Positions 14,838 through 52,460 of a stretch of 64,000 bases of DNA are shown in pieces. The position numbers and the translations under genes are program-made. Source of the stretch: an uncultured Rhodospirillaceae bacterium (GTDB lineage Bacteria; Pseudomonadota; Alphaproteobacteria; UBA11136); assembly GCA_964482135.1 (NCBI GenBank), contig CAYZWF010000002.1, forward strand, positions 6,639-70,638, in the 5' to 3' direction. Within the stretch, counting starts at the first letter, position 1; the number at the start of each line of letters is the position of its first letter. The notes under the pieces are model-generated. The model had not been told where the DNA came from, ran no database searches, and was given only the letters and a program-made list of their open reading frames with translations.

Positions 14838-16616
<1,779 letters not shown>

Positions 16617-37555: not shown

Positions 37556-38823
37556 CGCGCCAGCTTCTTACCGGCAACGTGGCGGCGGCCTGGGGCGTGC
37601 GTCTGGCCGAGGTGGACTATGTGCCGGCCTTTCCCATCACCCCCCAGACCGAGATCATCGAGACCATTGCCGGCTGGATCGACAAGGGTGAGATGGACTG
37701 CCGCATGGTGACCATGGATTCGGAGCATTCCATGATTACCGCCGCCGGGGCCGCGGTGGCCACCGGGGTGCGCTCCTACGCCGCCACCTCGAGCCAGGGG
37801 CTGCTCTATGGCATGGAGATGCTCTATACGGTGGCGGGCTGGCGCACGCCCTTCGTGCTGACCAATGTGTCGCGCGGGTTGTCGGCGCCCATCACCCTGG
37901 AATCCGACCATAACGATGTGATGGCGGCGCGCGACAGCGGCTTTTTGCAGATTCACTGCGCCACCTGCCAGGAGGTGGTGGACGCCACCCTCATGGCCTA
38001 TCGCCTGGCCGAGGATAAACGGGTGCGGGTTCCCATCATTGTCAATCTCGACGGCTTTTATCTCTCGTTTACCCGCGAGCCGGTGGATATTCCCGACCCG
38101 GCCAAGGCGCGGGACTTCCTGCCGCCCTTCGATCCGGGACCGTTGAAATTCCGCGCCGGGCGGCCCCTGAGCGAGGCCGTGGCCGTACTCGGCGGTACGC
38201 CGTACTCTTATTTCCGTTACGAACTGCATCTCGCCGCCATGGGCGCGCTGGCGGTCTATGACGAAGTGGCCGAGGATTTTGCACGCCTCTTCGGACGCCG
38301 TTACGAGGCGGTGGAGAGCTATCGCGCCGAGGACGCCGACTATGTGTTCGTCATGCTGGGCTCGTTTTCCACCAAGGCTAGGGATGCCGTGGATGGTTTG
38401 CGCGAATCGGGCGTCGCCGCCGGTCTGGTGCGGCCGCGCCTGTTCCGGCCCTTCCCCGTGGAGGCCCTGCGCCGCGCCCTGGCCGGGCGCAAGGGGGTGG
38501 CGGTGATCGACCAGAACCTTTCCATGGGCAAGGGCGGCGTTTTGCACGGGGAACTGGCCTCGGTGCTCTACGGCGTGGCCGGCGCGCCGGTGGTGGCGGG
38601 CTTTATCGGCGGGCTGGGGGGACGTGATATCGGCCCCGGCGAATTCCGCGAGATGATCTCGGTGCTGGAACAGGCCGTGGCCGATGGCGAGACACCGCCC
38701 CCGCGGCTTCTCTTCAGCGCCGAGGAACTGCGCCATGTGCGCAAGCTGCAGGCCTCGGCTCATGTGGAGAGGGAGGAAATCCACCGCCAGGAGAGGGATG
38801 AAACAGAGAGGGACGACACATGA
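37552..38823 (+). CDS. 2-oxoacid:ferredoxin oxidoreductase alpha subunit
   Basis: POR/VOR alpha family features (FPITPQTEI, domain order). ATGA coupling with the gamma/delta gene. Confidence 0.8.
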   Translation: MTRQLLTGNVAAAWGVRLAEVDYVPAFPITPQTEIIETIAGWIDKGEMDCRMVTMDSEHSMITAAGAAVATGVRSYAATSSQGLLYGMEMLYTVAGWRTPFVLTNVSRGLSAPITLESDHNDVMAARDSGFLQIHCATCQEVVDATLMAYRLAEDKRVRVPIIVNLDGFYLSFTREPVDIPDPAKARDFLPPFDPGPLKFRAGRPLSEAVAVLGGTPYSYFRYELHLAAMGALAVYDEVAEDFARLFGRRYEAVESYRAEDADYVFVMLGSFSTKARDAVDGLRESGVAAGLVRPRLFRPFPVEALRRALAGRKGVAVIDQNLSMGKGGVLHGELASVLYGVAGAPVVAGFIGGLGGRDIGPGEFREMISVLEQAVADGETPPPRLLFSAEELRHVRKLQASAHVEREEIHRQERDETERDDT

Positions 38824-39737
38824 GCGAACCGGTGATCAAGGGCATGAAGGATATCCCCTCGGAACACATTCTCGGCGCCGGTACCGCGCTGTGTGCCGGA
38901 TGCGGAGGCCTTCAGGCATTGCACGAGATTTACGACGTGCTCGGCGAGAATACGGTGTTCGTGAATTCCGCGGGATGCATGACCCTGTTGTCGGTCTATC
39001 CTTTCACGCCGTTCCGCGGCGGCTGGCTCTATACGGCCATGGCCTCGGCTCCGGCGGGCGCGCAGGGGGTGCGCGACGCCCTGGATATCCTGCTCGCCAA
39101 GAAACGGATTACGCCTGAAGAAGATATGCAGGTGGCGGTGCTTTCCGGCGACGGGGCCACGTACGGCATGGGGCTTGCCGCCGCCTCCTGCGCCATCGAC
39201 CGCGATCTCGATTTTCTCTATGTCTGTTACGACAACGAGGGCTACGGCAATACCGGCAACCAGACCTCGGCGGGTACGCCTCATGCCAGCCGCACCGCCA
39301 CCGATACCGGCACCGAAGGGGTGCCCGGTTACAAGAAGGATCTGTTCGGACTCTGGGTGGCCAACCGCCCCGCCTATGCGGCCACGGTGATCGGCGCCGA
39401 ACCGCTGGACCTCGCCCGCAAGGTGGAAAAAGCCAAATCCATCAAGGGGCCGAAACTGATTCTGGCACTCTCCCCCTGTCCGGTGGGCTGGGACTATGAC
39501 CCCATGGATACGCTGGACATCGGCCGCCTCGCCGTGAAGACGGGTATCTGGCCGCTGAAGGAATTTGCCGACGGCAAGGTGGTCCATACCAAGACCCCCC
39601 ATCCCCGCACCCCGGTGGAGGAATATCTCAAGCTGCAAGGCCGCTATGCCCATCTCTTTTCACCCAAGCGCAACGAAACCCTGCTGGGTGAGATACAGGG
39701 CCGGGTGGATGCCTATTGGGACGCCGTGGGCGGTTAG
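38820..39737 (+). CDS. 2-oxoacid:ferredoxin oxidoreductase beta subunit (TPP-binding)
   Basis: N-terminal Cys cluster for the [4Fe-4S] (CAGCGG), and TPP-binding GDG...N motif. Confidence 0.8.
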   Translation: MSEPVIKGMKDIPSEHILGAGTALCAGCGGLQALHEIYDVLGENTVFVNSAGCMTLLSVYPFTPFRGGWLYTAMASAPAGAQGVRDALDILLAKKRITPEEDMQVAVLSGDGATYGMGLAAASCAIDRDLDFLYVCYDNEGYGNTGNQTSAGTPHASRTATDTGTEGVPGYKKDLFGLWVANRPAYAATVIGAEPLDLARKVEKAKSIKGPKLILALSPCPVGWDYDPMDTLDIGRLAVKTGIWPLKEFADGKVVHTKTPHPRTPVEEYLKLQGRYAHLFSPKRNETLLGEIQGRVDAYWDAVGG

Positions 39738-39778
39738 GAGGAAAAGCCGGGCCGCGCGTGAACGCGGGAAAGGAAGAA

Positions 39779-41509
39779 ATGACGGAACAGGGCAAAAGCT
39801 ATTTCCGGCGCGGCGGCGAGGAGCCTCTTCTCGAGGTCACCATCCCCGAGCATGTGGCCGCCGTCACTGCGCGCTTTCCCGAGAGCGAGGCGGTGGTGTC
39901 TCTGCCCCAGAAAAAGCGCCTGACTTACGGAGAGCTTGATAAGGAAGTCATGGGTCTCGCCCGGGGTCTTCTTGGGCTTGGTTTCGCCAAGGGCGATCGT
40001 ATCGGCATCTGGGCCACAGACAATATGGAATGGCTGTTGCTGCAGTTGGCCACTGCCCGCATCGGCGCGGTTCTGGTCAATATCAACCCCGCCTACCGGG
40101 CGGGAGAACTGGCCTATGCCCTGAAACGCTCGGAGGTGCAGGGGGTGTTCGCCATTCCTTCCTTCCGGTCCAGCGATTACGTGGCCATGCTGGCCGAGAT
40201 CGTGCCCGAACTGCGGGAAGGCGGAACCGAGATCGAGGCCGCGGAACTGCCCCATCTGCGCCGGGTGGTGCTTTATGACGCCGCCGCTCCCATGGAGACC
40301 GCGCGCCCCCATCCCGGATTCACGTTGTGGCGGGAGGTCCTGGAGGCCGGTGACGGGGTGAGCGCGGCGCAAGTGGACGCGGTGACGGAGTCTCTGGATG
40401 CCCATGATCCCATCAATATCCAGTACACCTCCGGCACCACCGGCTTTCCCAAGGCGGTGGTGCTGTCCCACCACAACATTCTCAACAACGCCTATTTCGC
40501 GGCCAAGGCCATGCGCTTTACGGAAACCGACCGGCTCTGTGTGCCGGTGCCCTTCTATCATTGTTTCGGCATGGTGCTGGCTAATCTGCTGTGTTTGTCA
40601 GTGGGCGCCTGTCTCGTTATTCCCTCGGAACATTTCGACGCGCCCTCGGTATTGAAAGCCGTGGAGGCGGAGAAATGCACCGCCGTGCACGGCGTGCCCA
40701 CCATGTTCATCGCCGAGCTCGAGCACCCCGATTTCAAACGTTATGACCTCACCAGCCTGCGCACCGGAATCATGGCCGGTGCGCCGTGCCCGCCGGAATT
40801 AATGAAACGGGTCATCAGCGAGGAACACTGCCCCGAGATTCTCATCGGCTATGGCGAAACCGAGGCCTCTCCGCTGACCCACCTCACCAGCGCCGATGAC
40901 AGTTTCGAGCGCCGCACCGAAACGGTGGGCTGTAACCTCGCCCACCAGGAGGTGAAGATCGTCGATACCGACACCGGCGAGACCGTCCCCCTGGGCGCGG
41001 TGGGGGAGGTCTGTTTCCGCGGCTATCACATCATGAAGGGCTATTACGGCGACGAGGAAGCCACCAAAAAGGCCATCGACGAGGAGGGCTGGCTCTATTC
41101 CGGCGACCTCGGAACCATGGATGAAGAGGGCTATGTGAAAATCACCGGCCGCCTCAAGGAGATGATTATCCGTGGCGGCGAGAACATCTATCCCCGGGAA
41201 ATCGAGGAGGTGATCTTCGGCCACCCCAAGGTGGTGCAGGTGGCGGTGTTCGGCGTCGATGACGCGTTCTATGGCGAGGAGGTGATGGCCTGGGTCCAGC
41301 TTCACCCCGGCGAGGAGATGGGCGAAGAGGAGGTGCGGGAGTATTGCCGCGAACGGCTGGCCCATTTCAAGGCGCCCAAATATATCCGCTTCGTGGATGA
41401 TTTCCCCATGACGGTGACCGGCAAGCTGCAGAAATTCCGCATGCGGGAAATAGCTCAAGAAGAGATGGCGGGACAGGAAATGACTGGAAAGGAAGCGGAG
41501 GCCACATGA
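39779..41509 (+). CDS. AMP-dependent acyl-CoA synthetase/ligase
   Basis: AMP-binding motif YTSGTTGFPKAV, YGxTE, and C-terminal GKLQK lysine. Start at MTEQGK. Confidence 0.85.
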   Translation: MTEQGKSYFRRGGEEPLLEVTIPEHVAAVTARFPESEAVVSLPQKKRLTYGELDKEVMGLARGLLGLGFAKGDRIGIWATDNMEWLLLQLATARIGAVLVNINPAYRAGELAYALKRSEVQGVFAIPSFRSSDYVAMLAEIVPELREGGTEIEAAELPHLRRVVLYDAAAPMETARPHPGFTLWREVLEAGDGVSAAQVDAVTESLDAHDPINIQYTSGTTGFPKAVVLSHHNILNNAYFAAKAMRFTETDRLCVPVPFYHCFGMVLANLLCLSVGACLVIPSEHFDAPSVLKAVEAEKCTAVHGVPTMFIAELEHPDFKRYDLTSLRTGIMAGAPCPPELMKRVISEEHCPEILIGYGETEASPLTHLTSADDSFERRTETVGCNLAHQEVKIVDTDTGETVPLGAVGEVCFRGYHIMKGYYGDEEATKKAIDEEGWLYSGDLGTMDEEGYVKITGRLKEMIIRGGENIYPREIEEVIFGHPKVVQVAVFGVDDAFYGEEVMAWVQLHPGEEMGEEEVREYCRERLAHFKAPKYIRFVDDFPMTVTGKLQKFRMREIAQEEMAGQEMTGKEAEAT

Positions 41510-42474
41510 AGAAAATTCTGGTGACGGGAGCCCTAGGGCAGATCGGCTCGGAACTGGTGCCGGCGTTGAGGGAGCGCCATGGCGGCGGCAACGTGGTGGC
41601 CTCGGACATTCGCATGAAGCCCGGAGGCGGTGAAGTCGCAGGGGAGGGGCCCTTCGAACATCTCGATTGCACCAAGGGGCGCGAGATACGCGACCTTATC
41701 CTGCGCCATGACATCGGCACCGTTTACCATCTTGCCGCCATCCTCTCGGCGGTTGCCGAAGAACGGCCGCAGGTGGCCTGGCACCTCAACATGGGGGGGC
41801 TTTACCGGGTGCTGGAGGCGGCGCGGCATTTCGGATGCACGGTGTTTCTGCCCAGCTCCATCGGCGCCTTCGGCCCCGCCACGCCACGGGAGAATACGCC
41901 CCAGGACACCATTCAGCGTCCCACCACCATGTACGGCGTGACCAAGGTCGCCAGTGAGTTGCTCTGCGACTATTACGCCCAGCGTTTCGGCGTGGATACG
42001 CGGGGGCTGCGGCTGCCCGGCCTTATCTCCCATGTGGCGTTGCCGGGCGGGGGAACCACCGATTACGCCGTTGAAATGTTTTACCAGGCCATCCGTTACG
42101 GCCAGTACCGCTGTTTCCTCAAAGCCGATACCCGGCTCGACATGATGTATATGCCCGACGCTGTCAGGGCCATGATCGAGGTCATGGCGGCGGACCCGGC
42201 GCAGCTGGTCCACCGCAATGCCTTTAACGTGACGGCCATGAGTTTCACGCCGCGGGAACTGGCGGGGGAGATCGCCAAGCATATCCCCGGCTTCACCGTC
42301 GAATATGATGTGGACCCCATCCGCCAGGCGATCGCCGATTCGTGGCCGCAATCCATGGATGACTCCGCCGCCCGCCAAGAGTGGGGATGGGAGCCCCATT
42401 ATGATCTGCACTCCATGACCGGCCATATGCTGGAGGAACTCCGCAAAAAGCTCGGGATACCGGCCACAGAATAA
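41506..42474 (+). CDS. tdh: NAD-dependent L-threonine 3-dehydrogenase (UDP-glucose 4-epimerase-like SDR)
   Basis: GALGQIG Rossmann motif, extended SDR YxxxK. Immediately upstream of kbl. Confidence 0.7.
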   Translation: MKKILVTGALGQIGSELVPALRERHGGGNVVASDIRMKPGGGEVAGEGPFEHLDCTKGREIRDLILRHDIGTVYHLAAILSAVAEERPQVAWHLNMGGLYRVLEAARHFGCTVFLPSSIGAFGPATPRENTPQDTIQRPTTMYGVTKVASELLCDYYAQRFGVDTRGLRLPGLISHVALPGGGTTDYAVEMFYQAIRYGQYRCFLKADTRLDMMYMPDAVRAMIEVMAADPAQLVHRNAFNVTAMSFTPRELAGEIAKHIPGFTVEYDVDPIRQAIADSWPQSMDDSAARQEWGWEPHYDLHSMTGHMLEELRKKLGIPATE

Positions 42475-42505
42475 ATTCAGAATAAATACAGCGAGGAAGA
42501 ACCAC

Positions 42506-43750
42506 ATGCCCCACCAACGAATCGCCAAGCTGTTGTCTTCGGAGCTCGGGGACATGGAGAAAAGCGCCGCCGCCAAGGGCCGCGAGACCGTCTTTAGCGC
42601 CGTGATCCCGGCGGCTGAGGGAAACGGCCCGCGCTTCATCCTCGAGGGGGAAGGGGAGGCCCGGTTTCTGAGGATGAATTCCAACAGCTATCTCGGCATG
42701 TCCCTGAACCCGGACGTCATGGCGGCCGGGGAAGAGGCGGTACGGACCTATGGCGCAGGGCCGGGTGCGGTGCGTTTCATCAGCGGCACCTGGGCGCCGC
42801 ATATTGAACTGGAACGCCGGTTGGCCGATTTTCACGGCCGTGACAGCGCCATGATCTTCAGCTCGGCCTATGCCGCCATGATGGGAATCCTGCCGCCGTT
42901 GATTACGCTGGAGACGGCGGTGATCAGCGACGAACTCAATCACAACTGCATCATCAACGCTCTGCGCCTGGCGCGGCCCGGAGAAAAAAAGGTCTACCCC
43001 CATCTCGACTTGGGCCAATTGGAGGCGCGGCTGAAAGAGGCGGCGAGCACCTGCCGCCGCGCCATTATCGTTACGGACGGGATTTTCAGTATGCGCGGCG
43101 ACCACGCCCCGCTGGCCGGAATCATGGAACTGGCGCGCCGTTATGACGACGCCTTCACCGAGAACGTTCTTGTGGTGGTGGACGATTCACACGGCGTCGG
43201 CGCCTTCGGCGCAACCGGACGCGGCAGTGAGGAATATACCGGCTGTGGAGAGGCGGATATCCTGTTGGCGACCCTGGGCAAGGCGATCGGCGTCAATGGC
43301 GGCTATGTGGTGGCGAGCCGGACCCTTACCGACTATTTGCGGGAAAAGTCCCCCTTCTATGTGTATTCCAATCCCATCACTCCGGGCGAAGCGGCGGCGG
43401 CGGCGCGGTCGCTGGAGATTCTCGACAGTCCCCGGGGGCTGGCGCTGCTGGATCATCTGCGGGCCATGACCGCGCGCTTCGAGGCCGGTCTTCGCCAGCG
43501 GGGGTTCGAGACCATTCCCGGCGAACATCCCGGCGCGCATCCCATAGTGCCCCTGATGACCCGGGATACCGACCGCACCCTGGCCTTGGTCCGCCATCTG
43601 AAAAGCCACGGCATCCTCGCCACCGCCATCCACTATCCCGTTGTGCCCCGTGGTGACGAGGAAATCCGTTTTCAGATTTCCGCGGACCATACCGAGGCCG
43701 ATATTGATCTGGTTCTCGACGCCTTGGAGGGGGCGTTGGCGGAGTCTTGA
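42506..43750 (+). CDS. kbl: Glycine C-acetyltransferase (2-amino-3-ketobutyrate CoA ligase)
   Basis: Alpha-oxoamine synthase family (PLP fold type I); paired with tdh. Confidence 0.75.
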   Translation: MPHQRIAKLLSSELGDMEKSAAAKGRETVFSAVIPAAEGNGPRFILEGEGEARFLRMNSNSYLGMSLNPDVMAAGEEAVRTYGAGPGAVRFISGTWAPHIELERRLADFHGRDSAMIFSSAYAAMMGILPPLITLETAVISDELNHNCIINALRLARPGEKKVYPHLDLGQLEARLKEAASTCRRAIIVTDGIFSMRGDHAPLAGIMELARRYDDAFTENVLVVVDDSHGVGAFGATGRGSEEYTGCGEADILLATLGKAIGVNGGYVVASRTLTDYLREKSPFYVYSNPITPGEAAAAARSLEILDSPRGLALLDHLRAMTARFEAGLRQRGFETIPGEHPGAHPIVPLMTRDTDRTLALVRHLKSHGILATAIHYPVVPRGDEEIRFQISADHTEADIDLVLDALEGALAES

Positions 43751-43751: not shown

Positions 43752-44528
43752 TTAGCGCATGGAGCGCCAGGACTTGCGGGCCTCGTCGGAAATGCCGCCG
43801 GAATAGTAGCCCTGGAAAGGAATGCGGAACTCGGATTCCTCCGCGTTTTTCCTGAAGATAGCCAGAAGCATGGCATTCTCGGGTAGTTTGCCCGCCTTGA
43901 TAAATTCCAGCACCGCATCGCGGTCCGGGAATTGGTGAATCTCGAAGGGATTCGCGGCGCCCGCAAAAAACCACATGTCATAGTTATTGGCGCGCGCCAG
44001 ATCGAAGAACAGGGTGGGCTGGAAATTAACGAAGCCGTGATCCACCCAGCCGCTGATGAGCGGACCTTCGTGAATCATGAGCCCGCCGGGGCGCGTGTAT
44101 TGGTGCATGGAGGCGAACACCTGGCCGTAATTGAAGACGTGTTCGGCGGTGCCGTTATTGATGGTGACGTCAAAGGCGGTATCCAGGTCCAGGGGATGGT
44201 TGAGATCGTGCCTGAGGCAGGCATCGGTGCCGTTGAGGTCGATGGCGGTGACTTCGCGGCAACCGTAAAACAGGTCGTAATAGACCTTGGCGATGTCGAA
44301 GGGCCGGGTTTCCGTTTCCCCGGCCACCGCCGTTTCCAGACGCGCGCTCAGACGGTCGCGTTCCCCGGGGTCTTCGATAAGCGTACGGATGTCCTCAAGA
44401 AGGGTTTCGGTAGGGACGTCGCCGTACCAGTTAGCCTCGCCGAATTCCAGCACCGCAGCATCCTTGGGCAGGATTCCCTCCTGAAAAAACGTGCGGGTCA
44501 CGGTATAGGTGATGCGGGAGATAGCCAT
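43752..44528 (-). CDS. Hypothetical protein (possible methyltransferase-like fold)
   Basis: ORF only; weak resemblance to SAM-MTase motif regions (LEFGEANWYGD, TINNGTAEH). Convergent with kbl, downstream of the inositol cluster. Confidence 0.4.
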   Translation of the reverse strand: MAISRITYTVTRTFFQEGILPKDAAVLEFGEANWYGDVPTETLLEDIRTLIEDPGERDRLSARLETAVAGETETRPFDIAKVYYDLFYGCREVTAIDLNGTDACLRHDLNHPLDLDTAFDVTINNGTAEHVFNYGQVFASMHQYTRPGGLMIHEGPLISGWVDHGFVNFQPTLFFDLARANNYDMWFFAGAANPFEIHQFPDRDAVLEFIKAGKLPENAMLLAIFRKNAEESEFRIPFQGYYSGGISDEARKSWRSMR

Positions 44529-44580
44529 GTTGAGTCACATAGTATGCCTTAAGCGGTTTCCGTCTTAAGTAGATTCTTCT

Positions 44581-45576
44581 CTATGTAATTTCTTCCGGGG
44601 GGAGTTTGGTGGGGATGGAATAGCGCCAGGCAATCAGGAATCCCCAGACGATCCATATAATTTCCCGCAACCGCCGCACCAGCGCCACCGCCAGGCCCAG
44701 GGACGGTTGGCCGGTGATGGGGGTGATAATCAGTACCATGGCCCCTTCCTGGACGCCGATTCCGGCGGGGATGAAAAATGCCCCGGCGCGCACCAGCTCC
44801 ACCACCGCTTCGATGCACCATGCCTCGGCCATGGAGACGGGGTGGCCGAAAAACCATAAGATGAGATAAAGCTCCACCGCGCCCAGAACCCAATTGGCGA
44901 AGGTCAATGCCAGCGCCAGGGCGAATTTTCCGTGATCGCCGGCGTAGCTTTCCACCAGCCGGTTGTCCAAATCCTGGATGTGATGGAGCACCTCGGCCAG
45001 GCGCCGCCCGAAGCGCCGCCGCGAGAGCCATTCCCAGACGGCGGAGGTTACCTTCAGACGCTGCACGGCAAAGACCGCCGCGATCCCCACTATCAGAACC
45101 GTCAGGCCGATGGCGGCGGCCAGTTCATAAGCCGGGGACAGATAGCCGTAAGCGATGGTGAGAGCCAGCCCGCCGCACAGGAAAACCACCAGGGCCATCA
45201 AATTCGCCGTCTTGGCCACCACCAGGGAGGCCACCCCTTCGCGGTAGTCGAGGCCGAGAAATTTCTTCATCAGCACGGCTTTGACCGGTTCCCCGGCAAG
45301 ACCGACGAAGGGGGTTACCCGGTTCACCGCCGCACCCACCATGCGCACCTTCCAGAGGGCGTAAAACCACGGCCAGTCACGCCGGAAGGGGCGGATCAGA
45401 TACTGCCAGGACAGGGTATCGGCGAGGAAGGCGGCCATATAGACGCCGAGAACCGCCAAGAGCCCCCATTTGAGGTGCTCCATGTGACCGGCCACCGCGC
45501 TCAGGTCGGTTTTGACCACGATGGCGGTGAGTAACGCCAGGCCCAGCAGCAGAAACAGTATACGCAGCACCTTCAT
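44581..45576 (-). CDS. Lysylphosphatidylglycerol-synthase-TM-like (flippase-like) integral membrane protein
   Basis: Start reassigned to MKVLRILFLLL (45576), 12 nt after the upstream stop. About 8 TM helices. Confidence 0.55.
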   Translation of the reverse strand: MKVLRILFLLLGLALLTAIVVKTDLSAVAGHMEHLKWGLLAVLGVYMAAFLADTLSWQYLIRPFRRDWPWFYALWKVRMVGAAVNRVTPFVGLAGEPVKAVLMKKFLGLDYREGVASLVVAKTANLMALVVFLCGGLALTIAYGYLSPAYELAAAIGLTVLIVGIAAVFAVQRLKVTSAVWEWLSRRRFGRRLAEVLHHIQDLDNRLVESYAGDHGKFALALALTFANWVLGAVELYLILWFFGHPVSMAEAWCIEAVVELVRAGAFFIPAGIGVQEGAMVLIITPITGQPSLGLAVALVRRLREIIWIVWGFLIAWRYSIPTKLPPEEIT

Positions 45577-45587
45577 GGGGGGTGGAC

Positions 45588-46301
45588 CTATACGTGGTGG
45601 CGGCGGAAGCCCTTGACGAACTGGAGCATCCAGTAAGCTTGCGCGCCCAGCGCGCCGGTGGGAAGCAGAATCCACAAGGAATCGGCAAGGGCCAGGGCGA
45701 GAACGATGAAACAGAAGTCGGTGCGGATCACCCGCGAGACGTAAATGGAACGGTCGGTGGAGGAGTCCTCGGGTCCGTCTTCCACGAAGCTGCCTTCGCC
45801 GCCACCGATGGTGATGCCGCTGTCGCGCAGACAATCAATGGCGTAGTTGACGGTTCCACCCGCCGCCGCGATGACACCGCACCACAGCCAGAAGGATTCT
45901 TCCGTTCGCGCTCTGATCCCGGCGCCCAGCGCGATAAAGAGCGCGCCGTGCACCACCCAGTCGACGAAGGTATCGAAGCGTTTGCCGAAATCGGAGGTGA
46001 GATTTTTAAGCCGCGCAACCTCGCCGTCGCAGTTATCGAGAACGTAACAGGCGATGAAAAATGCCGCACCCGTCAGGGTGGCCCTGGGCCCGCTGTACTG
46101 GAACAGCCATGCCGCCAACAGTCCGAAGACCAGGGAGATGGCGGTGATCTGGTTGGGCGTCAACGGCGAACGGTAAAGCGCCGGGGTGGAAATGTAAGAG
46201 AGGTGGCGGACCAGGGGGAAAAGCCTTCGCGGGGGGGGTAAAAGTTCCCCCGGGGGGCTGTCGGGATGCGCCTCGTTCATGTCCTGGCCGTCAGTATTCA
46301 C
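45588..46301 (-). CDS. CDP-alcohol phosphatidyltransferase family protein
   Basis: Motif D-x2-DG-x2-AR ... G-x3-D-x3-D present (DNCDGEVARL ... GKRFDTFVD). Confidence 0.8.
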   Translation of the reverse strand: MNTDGQDMNEAHPDSPPGELLPPPRRLFPLVRHLSYISTPALYRSPLTPNQITAISLVFGLLAAWLFQYSGPRATLTGAAFFIACYVLDNCDGEVARLKNLTSDFGKRFDTFVDWVVHGALFIALGAGIRARTEESFWLWCGVIAAAGGTVNYAIDCLRDSGITIGGGEGSFVEDGPEDSSTDRSIYVSRVIRTDFCFIVLALALADSLWILLPTGALGAQAYWMLQFVKGFRRHHV

Positions 46302-46304
46302 GCA

Positions 46305-47660
46305 TCAACGGACAATGAGTTTTTCAACATTTTCCCCAAGATCCGATTGATCGAGCGCCTCTTCCTCGGCTAAGGCGCGCAGCATGTTGGTCAGCATCAG
46401 GTGCTGGACGAACAGGTCGTTCTGGGGTTCCTGGGAATCGGGCATGGTGGGCGCCTTGTAATAGAAGGACAGCCATTCCTGAATGCCGTTGAGGCAGGCG
46501 CGCTGTGCCAGGTCCATGAAAAGGATCAAATCGAGGGCAATGGGGGCGGCGAGGATGGAATCCCGGCACAGGAAATTGACCTTTATCTGCATGGACTGGC
46601 CCAGCCATCCCTGGATGTCGATATTGTCCCAGCCTTCCTTGGCGTCGCCACGGGGCGGGTAATAATCGATGCGGATCTTATGGTGGTAGTCGCCGTAAAG
46701 TTCGGGATAGAGATCGGGCTGGAGGATGGAATCCAGCACCCGGCCCTTGGAGGATTCCTTGGCCTTGAAAGAACCGGAATCGTCCAGGACCTCGCCGTCC
46801 TTGTTGCCGATGATGTTGGTGGAATACCAGCCTTCCAGGCCCAGCATGCGGGCTTGCAGGCCCGGCGCGACGACAGTCTTCATCATGGTCTGGCCGGTTT
46901 TGAAATCGCGCCCGCTGATGGCCACACCCTTTCTGTTGGCGAGATCGATGAGGGCAGGAATTTCCACCGAAAAGTTCGGCGCGCCGTTGGCATAGGGAAT
47001 GCCGCACATGAGGGAGGCATAGGCGTAGATCATGGAGGGCGCGATCTCGGGGGCGTTGTCGCGGAGGCCCTGTTCGAAGGCTTCCAGCGTCTGGTGAACC
47101 GGTCCCGGTTCCGAATAAACCTCCGTGGAGCCGCACCAGAGCATCACCGCGCGCTCGAGGTCGTTATCGGCAAGGAACTTCTTGATATCGTCCATCAGCG
47201 CCTTGGCCAGGTCCATTTTGCTGGCGCCGGTTTTCACATGGGTGCCCTTGAGATTACGCACATAAGCCTGGTCGAAAACGCCGCGCCACGGCGCGATGGC
47301 TTCGAGCTCGCGGCGCACATTCGACAGCATGTCATGGCCGAGGACGCCCGCGTTGCACGCCGTCTGGTAGGCATTTTCAGGCGTGATGTCCCAACCGCCG
47401 AATACCAGGTCACTGGGTTCCGCCAGGTGAACCAGATCCTTGATGGCGACGTAACGGGGAGTCTCGCCGTTGCCGATCTGGATCTTCTGCATCTGGGTTA
47501 GGGATCCGATAGGCCGCCCTTGTCCTTTCGCAACGAGGTTCACGCCGGCGATAAGGGTGGTGGCGACCGCCCCCATGCCGGGAATGAGAACGCCGAGACG
47601 GCCCTTGGGCGGAGCAATGCCCGCGCTTTGTTTCAAAGGGGGAGTGGTTGGCTTATTCAT
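46305..47660 (-). CDS. ino1: myo-Inositol-3-phosphate synthase (MIPS/Ino1)
   Basis: Length and conserved segments of archaeal/bacterial MIPS (NAD-binding N-terminus, catalytic region SLMCGIPYANGAPN). Confidence 0.75.
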   Translation of the reverse strand: MNKPTTPPLKQSAGIAPPKGRLGVLIPGMGAVATTLIAGVNLVAKGQGRPIGSLTQMQKIQIGNGETPRYVAIKDLVHLAEPSDLVFGGWDITPENAYQTACNAGVLGHDMLSNVRRELEAIAPWRGVFDQAYVRNLKGTHVKTGASKMDLAKALMDDIKKFLADNDLERAVMLWCGSTEVYSEPGPVHQTLEAFEQGLRDNAPEIAPSMIYAYASLMCGIPYANGAPNFSVEIPALIDLANRKGVAISGRDFKTGQTMMKTVVAPGLQARMLGLEGWYSTNIIGNKDGEVLDDSGSFKAKESSKGRVLDSILQPDLYPELYGDYHHKIRIDYYPPRGDAKEGWDNIDIQGWLGQSMQIKVNFLCRDSILAAPIALDLILFMDLAQRACLNGIQEWLSFYYKAPTMPDSQEPQNDLFVQHLMLTNMLRALAEEEALDQSDLGENVEKLIVR

Positions 47661-47674
47661 GGAAAACCTATTTA

Positions 47675-48880
47675 TTAATTTTTCTCCCGGTAGGCGATTA
47701 CCAGAAGGAATATAAAGAATATCGGCGCTCCCACCGCAGTGAGAGCAAGAAACCAGGCCGCCTTCCCAAACGCCGAGAGCAGCACGACTAGATAGATGAA
47801 ATCGCGGCGGACAAGCGCATCCGCCACTTGCGAAAAACCGCCCCCAGGTCCTTGCGCAACGGAGGTGAAGAGCGGCCCTGATGACTCCTTATGACGCATC
47901 GTGCGCCAAAACACAAATCCCGCCGAGGCCAGAGTGCCCAAAACCGCCGCAAAACCAGCCCAGAGCGGCCATACCGACTCCGACTCGAGACTCCATCCCA
48001 CGCCCATGCATGCAAAAACGGCCACGTGGACCAGGTTGTCGCCCCAATAATCGAGTATGCCTCCGAGACGCGATTCCTTCATACGTAGCCGCGCCAGCTC
48101 GCCGTCGCAGCCATCGAGGATGGAATGGGCCAAAAACAGCAACGCCCCCGTCACCTGCAGCGCCGGTTGCGACGACAGGAAAAACGGTGCCCCCAGAAGC
48201 CCCACGAGAATGCTGATGACGGTCATGGCGTTGGCCGACACCCGCGTCGCCGCGATCCGCCTTGTAATGGCCAGGGAGATGGGCCGGGACACAAGGCGGG
48301 CCATGACCCCGTCGGTTTCCTTGACCAGGCCGCCAAGCAGCCAGTCCACGGCCTCGGAAACAGTGGTTTCGGGGGTGAGATTCAGCCGCCGCTGTTCACC
48401 GAGTTCGCCGGGCCGGCACGAGGAGGCATCGAACATGCCCAGCAAGGTGGCGAATATGTCATTGGTCCGATTCTGGGGGGCTCCGTCTTCGGAGGACGGC
48501 TGGAGGGAAAACGGCCTCTGACCGGGAGTGGTTTCGATCACTGCGGCGGTTCCCGCTTCGAAAATCATTTTTCCCGGTTCCACCGGCATGCAGAGAAGTT
48601 CACCCAGCCATTTCTGGTCGGGCAATACATCCCCGGAAAGGACCACGATGCGACGTGCCGCAATGGTGGGGGCAGGACCATCCGAAGACGTAATAATACG
48701 CTCGAAACCGGCCCGTTCCGCAGTCCGTACCGTGCGGCGGGCAAGGGGCATGCCTAGCAGTTCGGTTTCGGGTCCAACCGGGCCGTCATTGCCCGGCGGC
48801 AGCACCATGAGAAGGCTCGAAGCCGCGTCGATGCTTCCCTGTGCGTTGTCCGTCTCATCTTGGAGAGGAGCAAAATTCAC
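47675..48880 (-). CDS. CDP-alcohol phosphatidyltransferase with N-terminal nucleotidyltransferase-like extension (IPCT/DIPPS-like architecture)
   Basis: C-terminal motif DGCDGELARL ... GGILDYWGD. N-terminal about 180 aa is weakly NTP-transferase-like (LLGMPLARRTVRTAERAGFERII). Confidence 0.65.
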   Translation of the reverse strand: MNFAPLQDETDNAQGSIDAASSLLMVLPPGNDGPVGPETELLGMPLARRTVRTAERAGFERIITSSDGPAPTIAARRIVVLSGDVLPDQKWLGELLCMPVEPGKMIFEAGTAAVIETTPGQRPFSLQPSSEDGAPQNRTNDIFATLLGMFDASSCRPGELGEQRRLNLTPETTVSEAVDWLLGGLVKETDGVMARLVSRPISLAITRRIAATRVSANAMTVISILVGLLGAPFFLSSQPALQVTGALLFLAHSILDGCDGELARLRMKESRLGGILDYWGDNLVHVAVFACMGVGWSLESESVWPLWAGFAAVLGTLASAGFVFWRTMRHKESSGPLFTSVAQGPGGGFSQVADALVRRDFIYLVVLLSAFGKAAWFLALTAVGAPIFFIFLLVIAYREKN

Positions 48881-48894
48881 GAACGCACCTCTTT

Positions 48895-49695
48895 TTACGA
48901 CTTACCGTATGGTGATCCCAGCGGGGCGGGTTCGCGGGCGGGGCGGTAGGTTCCCTTGGAAAGCCGTATTTTTTCGCGAGACTCCGCTTCCTCAAGGGCT
49001 TCGGGTGTATCCACGTCGAGCCAGAATTTGCCGGTTACCTCGGCGGTTTTGGCGCGGCCCCGCGCGGCCAAATGACGCAGGCCGTCGGAAAGGCCGTGCA
49101 GGTTGTTGGCCGCGGCCAGTTCCAGCCCTTCGAAAAGACCCGGGGTACACAGCACGATGCCAGTATCGGCCGCGTCCCAGGCCTCAAGATTCTTACCGAT
49201 CTCACAGATTTGGCCGTCCTCAAGCCGCACCCGGGTGACGTCATCGAGGTCGAAAATACCCTCTTTGTCACGGTCCACGGCGAGACACATTTCCCCGGGC
49301 TCCGGAACATGACGGGCCAGGGTTTCGGCAATTTCCGGATCGAACATATGATCGGTCATGGTGAGAAAGAAGGTGGCGTCACCCACATGTTCCCTCGCCG
49401 CCAGCGCGCTGGTGCCGTTTCCTTGTTCCCAGTTGGTGGCGGTGACGGCGTCAATGGTTAGGTTATGGCGGCGCGCAATGAGGTCGAAATGGGCCGAGAT
49501 GGTGTCCGCCTTGTGACCGGTTATGACGATAAAATTCGTGATTCCCGCGCCGTCGCGCAACGCCAGCACAGTGTGTTCGGCCAGGGTCCGTCCCCCCACC
49601 TGGACCAGCGGCTTCGGGGTGTCGGATCCCGACGTCAGCCGTGACCCCAGCCCGGCGGCGAGAATGACTGCCCTGTCTGGTTCGGTTATGGGCAT
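48895..49695 (-). CDS. Nucleotidyltransferase (NTP_transferase family; candidate CTP:inositol-phosphate cytidylyltransferase)
   Basis: GxGxRL motif ILAAGLGSRL. First gene of the operon. Confidence 0.7.
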   Translation of the reverse strand: MPITEPDRAVILAAGLGSRLTSGSDTPKPLVQVGGRTLAEHTVLALRDGAGITNFIVITGHKADTISAHFDLIARRHNLTIDAVTATNWEQGNGTSALAAREHVGDATFFLTMTDHMFDPEIAETLARHVPEPGEMCLAVDRDKEGIFDLDDVTRVRLEDGQICEIGKNLEAWDAADTGIVLCTPGLFEGLELAAANNLHGLSDGLRHLAARGRAKTAEVTGKFWLDVDTPEALEEAESREKIRLSKGTYRPAREPAPLGSPYGKS

Positions 49696-50021
49696 ATGGC
49701 GGTTCCTTCAGGCTGTTAATTTTATGAGCAAGTGGTGATCGGCCGCGGATTGCGGAAATCTTTAATTCCGGACGGTGCTGGCCGGGTGTTGGGGTGAATG
49801 TTCCTGAGTGGGGGGCTCAGAGCGTTACGTTTAATTTCCCTGAAAGCGTCCTCGATTGATGCTGTCAAACGTTATAACCATTATGGCCGGCAAAGCCATT
49901 AATATCGGGTTAACCATAACCGGGTTTGTCGGGCCCGGCTTTTGGAACGGTTGCATTAAGATATATAAAAACCATTAAAAACATATTGATGTACATAAAA
50001 CTTAATATTTTAGATAACTCT

Positions 50022-50049
50022 CTTGATTGGCCGAAAATTTGCCTTACAT
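50022..50049 (+). promoter_or_regulatory. Candidate sigma32 (RpoH)-type heat-shock promoter upstream of hsp20
   Basis: CTTGAT at 50022-50027, a 14-nt spacer, then CCTTACAT at 50042-50049. Sits about 100 nt upstream of the Hsp20 ATG. Confidence 0.35.
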
Positions 50050-50054
50050 GGTGA

Positions 50055-50148
50055 GTGACGGAGGCCGCAAATTGGCTCCGTCACCGTGACGGGCCTGATC
50101 ATTTGATAGGCCTGAAATGACGACATCGCTCATCAAGGAGGATGAATT
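50055..50148 (+). other. Structured 5' leader of hsp20 (three hairpins, Shine-Dalgarno in the last one); candidate RNA thermometer
   Basis: Hairpin 1 GTGACGGAG/CTCCGTCAC (50055-50084). Hairpin 2 GGCCT/AGGCC (50092-50112). Hairpin 3 TCATC-AAGGAG-GATGA (50130-50145) holds the Shine-Dalgarno sequence. Confidence 0.3.
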
Positions 50149-50631
50149 ATGAGTCTTATTGATTTTTCACCCCTGTTCCGTTCCACCGTCGGTTTCGACC
50201 ATTTGGCCCGGCTCGCCGAAGAGGCTTTGGATGCCGGTAACGGAGCGTCTTACCCCCCCTATAATATCGAGCGCCAGGGCGACCATGCCTATCGCATCAC
50301 CCTGGCCGTGGCCGGTTTCGGCGAGGAGGAGTTGAACGTGGAGGCCCGCGAAAACGCCCTTGTGGTCTCCGGCGAGAAAGCAGGAGGGGGTGAAGAGGCC
50401 GCCTATCTCTTCAAGGGAATCGCGGGACGCAACTTCAAGCGTGTCTTCCGCCTTGCCGACCATGTGAGGGTTGACGGCGCCAATCTTGTAAACGGCATGT
50501 TGACTATCGATCTCGTGCACGAGATTCCCGAGGAGAGAAAGCCCCGGCGCATAGCTATCGGGTCGCAAGCCGAAGGGTTGGTCTCGAAGACGAAAAAGCT
50601 CTTTGAGACTACCGGCGAAAAAGCAGCTTAA
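50149..50631 (+). CDS. Small heat-shock protein, Hsp20/alpha-crystallin family
   Basis: Alpha-crystallin domain (YRITLAVAGF ... GMLTIDL). 160 aa. Confidence 0.85.
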   Translation: MSLIDFSPLFRSTVGFDHLARLAEEALDAGNGASYPPYNIERQGDHAYRITLAVAGFGEEELNVEARENALVVSGEKAGGGEEAAYLFKGIAGRNFKRVFRLADHVRVDGANLVNGMLTIDLVHEIPEERKPRRIAIGSQAEGLVSKTKKLFETTGEKAA

Positions 50632-51146: not shown

Positions 51147-52460
51147 CTAATACAGGGATGCTTTCTGTTTCTTCAGCTCCGCCATGTGGTTCTGCATGGG
51201 CAGTGATTCCTGGAATGCCCACATGACCTTTTTCACGAATTCCTCGAAGCGCGCCCTGAGGGTTTCATCATCATCCAGATTCAGGCATTCATGGGTGTTC
51301 CAGTACACCCCTTCGATGAGCTTGCCGCTGCGGGAATCGTGAAACTCTGCATGCATGGCGATTCTTACCCCATCGGGTTCGCAGCATTTGAAGATCAGCT
51401 CTCCGTCGATGACGATATCGGGAATGCTCCAGCGGCCCATGCGTACCGTGGTGCGCTCGTCATAGGCGCCGCTCATCTGCTCTTTCATGACCCCAAGCAG
51501 CTGACGGACGCCGCCCGGGTCGCTGCCGGTGATGCCGCCGTAACGGCTTCTCTTTCCCTCATCGGCGAGCTTGCTGTTGACCATGTTCATATAGGCGAGC
51601 ATCTGGTGAAGGATTTCGCCTTTGACGGTTTCCCCCTTGGGGCGGCATTTCAGAAGTTTACAGTCGCAGTAGATGGCGTAAGGCCTGGTCTTGAAGGGCA
51701 GGATGGTGACGTGAATTTTCTTTGACGGCTGGGTGAGGGCTTCGGGAAGCAGGACTTTCCGGTATCCGTGTCCTTCCAGGGGGGCGCCATCGGCCGTGCG
51801 CCAGTCTATATCGTCGCTTTCTTCTTCCAGCGTAATCGTTTCACAGCAGTCGGTTTCGGTTGTCTCAAAGGTCTCGGTGGTCTCGTCTTCAGGCTCGTCT
51901 CCGCCGAAGCTTTCTTCTCCGCCGCCCGGTGTTTGCGGCGGCTGCGGGAGAATCAGGTTCTTTTTCTTCTTCTCATCTTCCTCAATGACCACGAGATGAC
52001 CGCCGAGATTCCTGATCTGGTCGCCGAGCTTGCCGAAGTCGGGGTCGCGCTCGGCGGGTTCGGAGATGACCTCTTCATAGCCCATATGTTCCTTGGCCCG
52101 TTCCTTCGAGTACTGCATCTCCTCGCGGGCCTTGCGGCCGTAATCCTCGGGGACGGGCTTGTAATCGCCCTGTTCGGGGGGTGTGGAGGTATCGCCAGAG
52201 GAAGAAGGCTGGTCGGTAAACCCTTCGGGAACGGTCTCCCCCGGCGCCACCGGGGCCGGCTCTTCGATGATTTCAGTCTCGTCCCAGCTGCATTCGTCCA
52301 TCTCGCTGCCATCGTCATAGACCCATCTTTCACAGGGATTGCCGTCGGCATCGGTATAGGTGGTGTGGCTCAGCAGGTTGGCGGCCGCGAGGGGGCGAGG
52401 GGAGAGCCCCAGTACGCAAAGAACAGTGATAAATAAAATGCAGCGACTGAAAAGGACCAT
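51147..52460 (-). CDS. Secreted acidic Cys-containing hypothetical protein
   Basis: Clear signal peptide. Asp/Glu-rich with a KKKK stretch. Locally lower GC. Confidence 0.5.
   Translation of the reverse strand: MVLFSRCILFITVLCVLGLSPRPLAAANLLSHTTYTDADGNPCERWVYDDGSEMDECSWDETEIIEEPAPVAPGETVPEGFTDQPSSSGDTSTPPEQGDYKPVPEDYGRKAREEMQYSKERAKEHMGYEEVISEPAERDPDFGKLGDQIRNLGGHLVVIEEDEKKKKNLILPQPPQTPGGGEESFGGDEPEDETTETFETTETDCCETITLEEESDDIDWRTADGAPLEGHGYRKVLLPEALTQPSKKIHVTILPFKTRPYAIYCDCKLLKCRPKGETVKGEILHQMLAYMNMVNSKLADEGKRSRYGGITGSDPGGVRQLLGVMKEQMSGAYDERTTVRMGRWSIPDIVIDGELIFKCCEPDGVRIAMHAEFHDSRSGKLIEGVYWNTHECLNLDDDETLRARFEEFVKKVMWAFQESLPMQNHMAELKKQKASLY

Follow-up and report, generated by a model that had tools for sequence, protein, structure and literature searches.

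Five co-directional genes on the minus strand, at positions 44581-49695 of the window (the whole 64-kb stretch of DNA that was analysed), very probably encode the synthesis of inositol phosphate, its activation to CDP-inositol and its transfer to an acceptor that is most likely a membrane lipid. Production of an inositol-phosphate lipid by a Kennedy-type pathway, in which the head group is activated, is in our view the probable, though by no means certain, function of the cluster. A membrane inositol phospholipid is the favoured product, given the flippase-like partner and the MMPL and Mla neighbours seen in relatives, and a solute resembling di-myo-inositol phosphate (DIP) is possible. Biochemical knowledge of a CDP-inositol lipid route comes from a single bacterium; in this uncultured marine alphaproteobacterium the route would draw on two transferase families uncharacterised so far.

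Gene content and conservation of the cluster

The five genes had been named in a sequence-only reading, and all of them were found on the minus strand where it had placed them, with domain calls that held. They are separated by 14, 14 and 3 or 24 bp (depending on the start of the fourth gene), followed by a 13-bp overlap between the stop of the fourth and the start of the fifth, a spacing that indicates an operon-like unit. All five genes were present in identical order in the relatives L007 and L008, whose 401-aa proteins are 73% and 57% identical to that of the window, arguing against a chance arrangement. Four were found in L027, all that its truncated contig accommodates.

The range originally proposed, 43752-49695, holds the five-gene cluster and also takes in a sixth, undescribed ORF of 258 aa (43752-44528, minus strand), which is not conserved with it. 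This ORF is co-directional and lies 52 bp downstream of the fifth gene, and its only Pfam matches were weak ones to Methyltransf_23/31/11, below the cutoffs. Of the relatives, only the ~93%-identical L001/L002 carry it beside the cluster. It was absent there in L007, L008 and L027, and has homologues (47-59% identity) in unrelated TPR/glycosyltransferase or miscellaneous contexts; this methyltransferase-like ORF is probably outside the pathway. Neighbouring "SPT-like" genes, considered as sphingolipid genes, were rejected as such, being Tdh/Kbl.

The first gene (48895-49695, minus strand) encodes a cytidylyltransferase of 266 aa, the putative maker of CDP-inositol, with an NTP_transf_3/NTP_transferase domain (Pfam NTP_transf_3, E 2.3e-16) and the GLGSRLTSGSDTPK signature (GLGSRL...PK). 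It scored 137 bits (E 8e-40) against the IPCT half of NF041135 and matched A. fulgidus IPCT (PDB 2xme) over its full length (E 1e-27, residues 8-237), whereas the best non-IPCT structure reached only ~1e-9. In L088, the MIPS::NTP fusion has a C-terminal half that shares 47% identity with it, and the N-terminal domains of the fusions fus497 and P0498 share 42%. Judged by sequence, this standalone NTP-transferase is specifically IPCT-like.

The third gene (46305-47660, minus strand) encodes a myo-inositol-1-phosphate/inositol-3-phosphate synthase (MIPS) of 451 aa that matched PF07994 (E 6.7e-91) and PF01658 (E 5e-31) in Pfam. Its best solved relative is BT_1526 of B. thetaiotaomicron (PDB 7NWR; E 8.6e-143, residues 14-434), a biochemically characterised MIPS, and by these matches the ino1 candidate is a true MIPS of the long type and not a different NAD-dependent enzyme.

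The two CDP-alcohol phosphotransferases

The second gene (47675-48880, minus strand) encodes a CDP-alcohol phosphotransferase (CDP-AP) of 401 aa, the putative user of CDP-inositol as donor. A CDP-OH_P_transf domain (residues 215-327; PF01066, E 4e-12) with the complete DGCDGELARLRMKESRLGGILDYWGD motif at residues 256-281 follows a soluble domain of ~185 aa, and the protein divides into an IPCT-like N-domain (~20-183) and a six-TM catalytic domain (~190-400). The top Foldseek match of its AF2 model (pLDDT 82, pTM 0.76) was AF2299, over both domains (E 5e-15, TM 0.74), then DIPPS and then PIP synthase (PIPS). The best family model was the DIPPS half of NF041135 (73 bits, E 2e-20; equivalog cutoff 580).

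A nucleotidyltransferase-like N-terminal extension and an IPCT/DIPPS architecture had been read from this sequence. The two-domain layout stood, and the extension agreed with that description by fold and by profile alignment, hhalign placing the protein in register with the IPCT::CDP-AP fusion of L003 from just past the G-loop (probability 100%, E 1.6e-40). However, Pfam detected no nucleotidyltransferase in the extension and motif inspection found no GxGxR...PK there. The extension, whose nucleotidyltransferase identity is drawn solely from fold and profile alignment, is probably a degenerate, non-catalytic domain derived from an IPCT, and loss of the signature would explain the separate IPCT gene. 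The 401-aa family comprises more than 2959 proteins from many phyla, in mesophilic marine, soil and groundwater MAGs. In most phyla its gene belongs to another kind of cluster, not described before, that includes enzymes of the aminocyclitol type and sometimes adjoins hopanoid genes.

The fourth gene (45588-46301, minus strand) encodes a shorter CDP-AP, of 237 aa from a GTG at 46301 or, more likely, 230 aa from an ATG at 46280, the start taken by public gene callers (P0121). It has a CDP-OH_P_transf domain (PF01066, E 1.6e-13) with a complete DNCDGEVARLKNLTSDFGKRFDTFVD motif, and belongs to a family of ~558 proteins; in both L088 and L089 the family gene forms a pair with one for LPG_synthase_TM. 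Its best NCBIfam model was archaetidylinositol-phosphate synthase (54 bits, below the cutoff of 180), the PIPS models scored 34-40 bits (40 for the 230-aa protein) against a cutoff of 170, and the top Foldseek match of its AF2 model (pLDDT 88) was the TM domain of AF2299.

By sequence models and predicted folds, both CDP-APs thus appear nearest to AF2299, DIPPS and PIPS, enzymes of inositol phosphate or soluble CDP-alcohols, and not to PgsA/PssA. Together with a genuine MIPS, this leaves nothing, among the computational results that the sequence-only reading had named as speaking against its route, that was actually found.

Proposed pathway and its closest known counterparts

The fifth gene (44581-45576, minus strand) encodes an LPG_synthase_TM/HpnL-like polytopic membrane protein of 331 aa, putatively flippase-like; the mechanical ORF is longer, and the start chosen, MKVLRILF, fits the 329-aa protein called in L001. 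It matched PF03706 (Pfam, E 1.2e-35) and the flippase-like model TIGR00374 (56.7 bits, above cutoff), and scored 168 bits against TIGR03476 HpnL, below the cutoff of 195.65. Of 80 species loci, 65 have an LPG_synthase_TM gene and 33 an MMPL gene no more than 10 kb from the 401-family gene. MMPL directly adjoins the cluster in L027 and L008, and in L089 it overlaps the 230-family gene and is followed by MlaC, MlaC and MlaA; no MMPL, MlaA, MlaC or squalene-hopene cyclase genes were found in the 64-kb window.

The steps of the pathway are tied together by Rosetta-stone fusions, in which MIPS is joined to IPCT (L088, L039 and L067), IPCT to a 401-type CDP-AP (L003, fus497) or the latter to IPCT (P0368), and IPCT, CDP-AP and LPG_synthase_TM occur in a single 798-aa chain (P0498). 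These fusions and the identities of MIPS, IPCT and the transferases lend support to the CDP-inositol-dependent route, to an inositol phospholipid or DIP, that had been suggested beforehand.

In the proposed pathway, MIPS would convert glucose-6-phosphate to L-myo-inositol-1-phosphate, which the standalone IPCT would join with CTP to give CDP-inositol, both steps being well supported. The 401-aa AF2299/DIPPS-like enzyme, its N-domain an IPCT relic without the nucleotide-binding loop, would then pass phospho-inositol from CDP-inositol to an alcohol acceptor on the cytoplasmic face of the membrane. This acceptor is most probably a lipid, either a diacyl- or dialkyl-glycerol (the case of Rhodothermus BEPIS) or, following Caulobacter CpgA, the head group of a lipid already made. 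The least certain step is a second, related transfer by the 230-aa enzyme, which may have a different acceptor or may make the lipid that the 401-aa enzyme extends. Family membership and fusions suggest that the LPG_synthase_TM/HpnL-like protein flips or presents the product; where an MMPL and/or Mla system is adjacent, as in several relatives, it would take the product towards the outer membrane. No phosphatase is encoded in the five-gene cluster, which fits direct transfer from CDP-inositol to a product without extra phosphate.

In R. marinus, a MIPS-IPCT-BEPIS operon makes ether-linked PI from CDP-inositol (Jorge, Borges & Santos 2015, via PMC4587543). PMC4587543 places this type of operon in several bacterial genera and the 401-aa family is found in at least 525 species genomes, so that the rarity first claimed for the route was overstated. 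The window resembles R. marinus in its operon-like MIPS, standalone IPCT and CDP-AP, and in the proposed passage from CDP-inositol to a lipid alcohol without PIP intermediate or phosphatase. Unlike R. marinus, which has one transferase and an ether glycerol as acceptor, it has two, one with a degenerate IPCT-like domain, plus the LPG_synthase_TM/HpnL-like gene; BEPIS was compared with them by description only. The abstract of the R. marinus study is said to include Alphaproteobacteria among the genera with the operon.

The archaeal/Thermotoga IPCT/DIPPS enzymes (PDB 4mnd, 2xme) include a full-length homologue of the window IPCT, and, like AF2299 (PDB 4o6m), share the two-domain architecture and full catalytic motif of the 401-aa protein. 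The 401-aa protein differs in its N-domain, which has lost GxGxR...PK, and in its host, a mesophilic alphaproteobacterium; its family is linked and sometimes fused to a lipid-flippase-type protein, an association not known for the archaeal solute enzymes. In B. vulgatus, an "alternative" inositol-lipid cluster of NTP transferase, CDP-alcohol phosphatidyltransferase and long-type MIPS, close to a homologue of the LPG-synthase BT_1521, has been proposed to use CDP-inositol without a PIP intermediate (Heaver et al. 2022, PMC9246714), a proposal itself unconfirmed. The window has a second transferase in place of its HAD hydrolase and no sphingolipid genes near the cluster, the adjacent PLP enzyme being Kbl and not SPT.

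Caulobacter crescentus, also an alphaproteobacterium, uses IPCT-like CpgD and the PgsA-domain protein CpgA to extend a lipid head group with a CDP-activated unit, giving ceramide diphosphoglycerate. CpgA, a CDP-AP, is genetically required for this addition to an existing head group and was compared with the window by description only; the activated group is 3-phosphoglycerate, the lipid a sphingolipid, and MIPS is lacking. In the mycobacterial/Bacteroides PIP synthase route (PgsA1/BT_1523), too, MIPS supplies inositol-1-phosphate, and the CDP-AP is a six-TM enzyme from the same broad clade. There the lipid is activated (as CDP-DAG), and a PIP phosphatase but no IPCT is required, whereas the window has an IPCT and no phosphatase in the cluster.

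Alternative products

Counted against a lipid product were the minimal six-TM architecture of both CDP-APs, linked to soluble acceptors by Clarke et al. (PMC4634129), and their closest solved relatives, AF2299 and AfDIPPS, which do not process lipids. So were the lack of MMPL, MlaA, MlaC and squalene-hopene cyclase genes in the window and the locus L067, where the 401-type gene has just a Metallophos_2 phosphoesterase and a MIPS::IPCT fusion for company, without LPG_synthase_TM within 10 kb, the set expected for DIP via a phosphorylated intermediate. The 3-phosphoglycerate substrate of CpgD indicates that IPCT-like enzymes can take other phospho-substrates, which also weighs against the CDP-inositol lipid.

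It is conceivable, though unlikely, that the product is a compatible solute, with the 401-aa protein acting as a DIPP synthase (CDP-inositol + inositol-1-phosphate to DIPP) beside MIPS and IPCT, an unlinked phosphatase releasing DIP or a related soluble phosphodiester for osmo- or thermoprotection, and the 230-aa enzyme and membrane protein serving another purpose. The L067 set and the best family model fit this, as do the best folds, AF2299 and AfIPCT/DIPPS, which share soluble substrates and a six-TM plus cytidylyltransferase-like architecture (PMC4634129), but the 401-aa score is far under the DIPPS equivalog cutoff. A small heat-shock gene (hsp20) is divergently adjacent to the cluster in the window and L001/L002, an adjacency limited to these ~93%-identical relatives. 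To our knowledge, DIP comes essentially from (hyper)thermophiles, whereas the 401-aa family comes from mesophilic MAGs; IPCT/DIPPS genes are, however, reported in non-thermophilic deep-sea Thaumarchaeota (PMC8397731). The tight linkage of the family to LPG_synthase_TM, extending to fusion, and the MMPL and Mla genes of relatives argue for the membrane lipid.

Less probable still is a mixed route, in which the 230-aa enzyme, as a PIP/PI-synthase type, would use CDP-diacylglycerol and inositol-1-phosphate, and the 401-aa enzyme would add a second phospho-inositol from CDP-inositol, giving a lipid with a di-inositol-phosphate head group. It would account for two transferases sharing one IPCT and one flippase-like protein, has a precedent in CpgD/CpgA, the latter adding a second phosphoglycerate, and agrees with DIPPS chemistry, in which the donor is attached to a hydroxyl on the inositol of an inositol-1-phosphate ester. 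The 230 family paired with LPG_synthase_TM without the 401 family (L089), and the 401 family without the 230 family (type B loci), suggest two separable steps. The reading is purely inferential: although the 230-aa protein's best models are of this kind, all PIPS/AIPS scores fall well under the cutoffs of 170-180, the cluster lacks a PIP phosphatase, and such a lipid is not reported in the searchable literature.

That the 401-aa protein is a relative of CDP-AT-type cardiolipin synthase, incidentally adjacent to MIPS and IPCT, is very improbable: such proteins in Iodidimonas, Niveispirillum and Caulobacter were proposed as such (Degli Esposti et al. 2023, PMC10411912) and ClsA gave a weak NCBIfam match (19.9 bits, E 7e-4), but Caulobacter has them yet is without cardiolipin (PMC10411912), linkage or fusion of the family to IPCT, MIPS and cyclitol-modifying genes persists across phyla, and the DIPPS/AIPS/PIPS models far outscore PgsA/ClsA.

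The five-gene cluster and its transferases

Family-model searches of five co-directional minus-strand ORFs (44581-49695) recovered the domain content described in the sequence-only reading. The genes encode a 266-aa nucleotidyltransferase (49695-48895), a 401-aa protein with a CDP-alcohol phosphotransferase (CDP-AP) domain at residues 215-327 and a soluble region of about 185 aa ahead of it (48880-47675), a 451-aa myo-inositol-1-phosphate synthase (MIPS; 47660-46305), a short CDP-AP of 237 or 230 aa (46301 or 46280-45588), and a 331-aa LPG_synthase_TM protein (45576-44581). They form an operon-like unit, with successive spacings of 14, 14 and 3-24 bp and, between the last two genes, an overlap of 13 bp. 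In GC and GC3 the genes of the cluster resembled their neighbours, and the comparison gave no sign of recent horizontal transfer. The Rfam search for regulatory RNAs yielded one sub-threshold RsmY match, located inside coding sequence, and the promoter and terminator scans were not clearly above shuffled expectation.

The putative ino1 product was recognized as a long-type MIPS, as had been proposed. Both of its Pfam domains scored above the gathering thresholds (NAD_binding_5, PF07994, 305.5 bits, cutoff 25; Inos-1-P_synth, PF01658, 107.5 bits, cutoff 27), and its best solved relative, matched near full-length (residues 14-434, E = 8.6e-143), was BT_1526 of Bacteroides thetaiotaomicron (7NWR), for which MIPS activity and structure have been reported (PMC9246714). 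The 266-aa protein carries the GxGxR...PK signature as GLGSRL...PK (GLGSRLTSGSDTPK at residue 15) and scored above the PF12804 and PF00483 cutoffs. Its residues 8-238 matched CTP:inositol-1-phosphate cytidylyltransferase (IPCT) of A. fulgidus (2xme, E = 1e-27) and the IPCT domain of AfIPCT/DIPPS (4mnd, 5e-27), followed by T. maritima IPCT (2.4e-10) and other sugar-phosphate nucleotidyltransferases (1e-9 or worse); against the model NF041135 it matched the IPCT part alone (137 bits, E = 8e-40). The gene adjoins those for MIPS and a CDP-AP. A caveat for the IPCT assignment comes from Caulobacter CpgD, which is IPCT-like, yet uses 3-phosphoglycerate as substrate.

The motif D(x)2DG(x)2AR(x)8G(x)3D(x)3D is complete in both the 401-aa and the 237-aa protein. 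Their AF2 models, with JM1 and six TM helices, match AF2299, DIPPS and PIPS. For the 401-aa model (pLDDT 82, pTM 0.76) the best Foldseek hit was AF2299 across both domains (TM 0.74); for the 230-aa model (pLDDT 88, pTM 0.84) it was the TM domain of AF2299, then DIPPS and PIPS. The best family models for both enzymes were DIPPS, archaetidylinositol-phosphate synthase (AIPS) and PIP synthase, all under their curated cutoffs. Against NF041135 the 401-aa protein reached 73 bits in the DIPPS part only (equivalog cutoff 580 bits), and against NF045883 and NF040950 (PIP / archaetidylinositol-phosphate synthase; cutoffs 170 and 180 bits) the scores were 34 and 55 bits for the 401-aa and 40 and 54.5 bits for the 237-aa protein. 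The PgsA and PssA models gave 17-31 bits (cutoffs 109 and 107), always under the DIPPS/AIPS/PIPS matches, ClsA was also much lower, and PgsA and PSS structures ranked under AF2299/DIPPS/PIPS in the fold search of both transferases. Family scores and structure ranking thus agree in setting these proteins apart from the PgsA/PssA housekeeping enzymes, the assignment that would have undermined the inositol reading.

The soluble extension of the 401-aa protein had been described as nucleotidyltransferase-like, in the manner of the bifunctional IPCT/DIPPS enzymes. The likeness held for the fold and for the alignment with a fused homologue; Pfam was silent, and the kinship of IPCT and N-domain is visible by these two means only, the single-sequence comparison with the IPCT of the cluster not being significant (E = 0.46). 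In the model, residues 20-183 form an alpha/beta domain; the protein as a whole superposes on AF2299, for which a cytidylyltransferase-like N-terminal domain has been described (PMC4634129). The 401-family profile aligned end to end with a 497-aa IPCT::CDP-AP fusion from a Methylomirabilales MAG (locus L003; probability 100%, E = 1.6e-40), beginning in register directly past the G-loop of the fusion. A bifunctional IPCT/DIPPS enzyme would call for a catalytically competent fused IPCT domain; here GxGxR...PK is missing, and the loop residues are not conserved in the family alignment. We conclude, from alignments and models, that the N-domain is probably an IPCT relic that lost catalysis. The predicted loss would explain the separate, active-type IPCT gene upstream, and a homologous protein (P0368), in which a full 401-type protein is followed by a C-terminal active-type IPCT domain, makes the same point.

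Related loci and gene fusions

A search at E < 1e-5 placed more than 2959 proteins in the 401-aa family, and one at E < 1e-10 gave 3567 representatives; members occur in at least 525 species genomes from many phyla of soil, groundwater and marine habitats. The best matches of the family, like the close relatives of the window, were all MAGs. The 230-aa family is formed by about 558 proteins. Two gene orders were distinguished. The type A order (IPCT, 401-type, MIPS, 230-type, LPG_synthase_TM) is that of the window and of the loci L001, L002 and L007 (401-aa identity 73%), partly of L027, and it is kept in L008 (57%). Type A variants in L088 (8059-9939), L039 (2085-4004) and L067 (11002-12891) carry a MIPS::IPCT fusion of 626-640 aa. 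The type B order runs LPG_synthase_TM, HAD, a different NTP-transferase, an unknown 279-aa protein, a class III aminotransferase, a Gfo/Idh/MocA oxidoreductase, the 401-type protein and MIPS, and was found in most other phyla (Methylomirabilota/Rokubacteria, Nitrospira, Acidobacteriota, Hyphomicrobiales and Chloroflexia; for example L003:4278-12636, also L005, L009, L010, L015, L021-L025 and many others). It looks like an aminocyclitol-phosphate head-group pathway, and sometimes adjoins genes for squalene-hopene cyclase (SHC), MMPL (HpnN-like) and MlaC (HpnM-like) proteins. The searchable literature yielded no account of either the 401-aa family or the type B cluster.

Within 10 kb of the gene for the 401-type protein, 65 of 80 species loci had an LPG_synthase_TM gene, 33 an MMPL gene and 11 an SHC gene. 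In L027 and L008 an MMPL gene adjoins the type A genes. The 230-type gene is paired with an LPG_synthase_TM gene (product 50% identical) in L088 and L089, and in L089 an MMPL gene overlaps the 230-type start and is followed by MlaC, MlaC and MlaA genes. Besides the fusions to MIPS, IPCT orthologues are fused to CDP-APs in the 497-aa protein of L003, in P0368 and in P0498. The last, a single chain of 798 aa, joins an IPCT (42% identical to that of the window), a 401-type CDP-AP (40%) and an LPG_synthase_TM protein (30%); judged by its sequence, it is the strongest single item suggesting that these functions are linked.

Other arrangements were also recorded. In P0365 the type B 279-aa protein of unknown kind is fused to a 401-type protein. 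In P0466, P0480 and P0483 the 401-family CDP-AP domain lies behind an N-terminal adenylate/guanylate cyclase domain, and a cyclase-hemerythrin gene (L008:14494-15852) is directly downstream of the type A cluster in L008; these cases may hint at regulation by a nucleotide signal. The Hyphomicrobiales locus L089 (1-14184) further includes a GT4 glycosyltransferase, a PIG-L deacetylase, an NTP-transferase, a ROK kinase, three short CDP-APs and two LPG_synthase_TM genes, alongside its MMPL, two MlaC and MlaA genes; by analogy, the GT4 and PIG-L pair recalls GlcN-inositol (GPI/mycothiol-type) chemistry.

Candidate pathway and alternative products

Inositol lipids are considered rare in bacteria, and to our knowledge Rhodothermus marinus is the only organism in which the CDP-inositol (Kennedy-like) route to them has been demonstrated biochemically; for Bacteroides and Prevotella it is a proposal. 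The cluster and the gene fusions make a clear candidate for this route in marine Alphaproteobacteria, with a logic like that of the Rhodothermus route and of archaeal IPCT/DIPPS. MIPS is predicted to form inositol-1-phosphate and IPCT to form CDP-inositol; these two steps, predicted from homology, are strongly supported. Their tie to the 401-type transferase, which would take CDP-inositol as donor, comes from gene adjacency and from fusions (MIPS::IPCT and IPCT::CDP-AP). The product would be a membrane lipid, handled by the LPG_synthase_TM protein, and the 230-aa enzyme would perform a second, related transfer.

A DIP-like solute is a credible alternative product that we regard as quite unlikely. 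In its favour, lipids are not substrates of the nearest solved relatives of the transferases, enzymes of six-TM architecture typically use soluble acceptors, and L067 combines a phosphoesterase, a 401-type protein and MIPS::IPCT without a flippase-like gene. The lipid reading is favoured by the LPG_synthase_TM partner, which is near-constant and can be fused to the transferase, by the MMPL and Mla neighbours in relatives, and by the lack of a phosphatase, since direct transfer from CDP-inositol would need none. As a purely conjectural variant, a mixed route might operate, in which the 230-aa enzyme makes PI(P) and the 401-aa enzyme adds a further phospho-inositol, a scheme that would account for the presence of two transferases. 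For AF2299-like proteins with long N-extensions, kinship with cardiolipin synthase has been proposed (PMC10411912), an idea contradicted for this family by the genomic linkage of its genes.

The inositol-phosphate lipid route proposed here resembles known systems to different degrees. The R. marinus MIPS-IPCT-BEPIS operon, as presented in PMC4587543, likewise unites MIPS, IPCT and a CDP-AP, with BEPIS compared by description only. The proposed B. vulgatus-type cluster (Heaver 2022, PMC9246714) shares an NTP-transferase, a CDP-AP and MIPS, with an LPG-synthase homologue nearby, but it has a HAD hydrolase, whereas the window has none between 43752 and 50148; type B loci in other phyla do carry a HAD gene. 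In Caulobacter, a lipid head group receives a CDP-activated group through CpgD and a PgsA-domain protein (CpgA, compared by description only). The two transferases, the pseudo-IPCT domain and the flippase-like partner are variant features relative to known routes, and by score the cluster is outside the DIPPS, PIPS, AIPS, PgsA, PssA and HpnL equivalogs.

The membrane protein scored above PF03706 and the flippase-like model TIGR00374, and reached 168 bits against HpnL (TIGR03476), below the 195.65 cutoff. No SHC, MMPL, MlaA or MlaC homologue was found in the 64-kb window, so with this HpnL score a hopanoid link is not supported there; shc/hpn linkage was seen only at related type B loci (e.g. 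L003, L009 and L022). Literature searches on a hopanoid/MIPS/CDP-alcohol cluster and on phospho-inositol hopanoids returned nothing, and papers from 2025-2026 still give the function of HpnL as unknown. A bolder proposal, tentative and in our view rather unlikely, is that both CDP-AP families and the HpnL-like protein build an undescribed lipid class, with a di-inositol-phosphate head group or with phospho-inositol on a non-glycerolipid anchor such as bacteriohopanepolyol. If true, at least 525 bacterial species would share a widespread, so far unrecognised pathway of head-group activation, with the 401-aa family as its marker; in the commoner form (the type B set, often beside shc/hpnN/hpnM) this pathway would attach an aminocyclitol phosphate, and HpnL-type proteins would gain their first functional context. 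Identifying the product would add a lipid or solute biosynthetic pathway, and could explain the flippase-like HpnL-type proteins.

Genes surrounding the cluster

A 258-aa ORF (43752-44528, minus strand), weakly methyltransferase-like and covered by the range of the sequence-only reading, accompanies the cluster only in relatives of about 93% identity. It was rejected as an inositol methylase, given that its homologues (47-59% identical) sit in unrelated contexts. Its family has about 371 proteins, nearly all of 256-259 aa with no Pfam match above cutoff, and elsewhere adjoins large TPR/Glyco_transf_41 proteins. The convergent plus-strand run at 36605-43750 is operon-like, with overlapping starts and stops, and its end and the 258-aa ORF's stop are 1 bp apart; the run encodes 2-oxoacid:ferredoxin oxidoreductase alpha and beta subunits, an AMP-binding acyl-CoA ligase, an SDR-type L-threonine 3-dehydrogenase and a Kbl-like 2-amino-3-ketobutyrate CoA ligase. 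The Spt/CerR/ACP-synthetase look of this run suggested a sphingolipid link, which was rejected on the Tdh/Kbl identities: the SDR protein is an L-threonine 3-dehydrogenase (E = 8e-124), and the PLP enzyme is closest to Kbl (9e-72), with SPT only at 1e-47. Neither gene is kept beside the cluster beyond relatives of about 93% identity.

The nir/nos-type genes of the window, together with Alphaproteobacteria/Rhodospirillaceae MAGs as the closest public relatives, make the alphaproteobacterial denitrifier setting assumed beforehand a reasonable one. ORFs of the denitrification island lie at 3317-5542 and 14838-16583 (minus strand) and at 10147-11784, 11968-13734 and 16923-19169 (plus strand). Cytochrome cd1 (NirS-type) is represented in the island by three paralogues, a copy number that is unusual; also encoded there are a NapC/NirT domain fused to an EB_dh domain and a Fer4_5 NosR-like protein.

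Divergent from the cluster is an ibpA-like small heat-shock gene (50149-50631), separated from it by a 453-bp AT-richer intergenic region (within the 49696-50631 stretch), for which the Rfam search returned neither a ROSE element nor any other. An RpoH-like CTTG-N17-CTTACAT element, spotted by eye only, is located ahead of this gene at about 50022-50050. Further along, a minus-strand gene (51147-52460) encodes a highly acidic, Glu/Asp/Pro-rich protein of 437 aa with an N-terminal hydrophobic segment and no Pfam match; its counterpart in L001 and L002 has 433 aa and likewise lacks a Pfam match.
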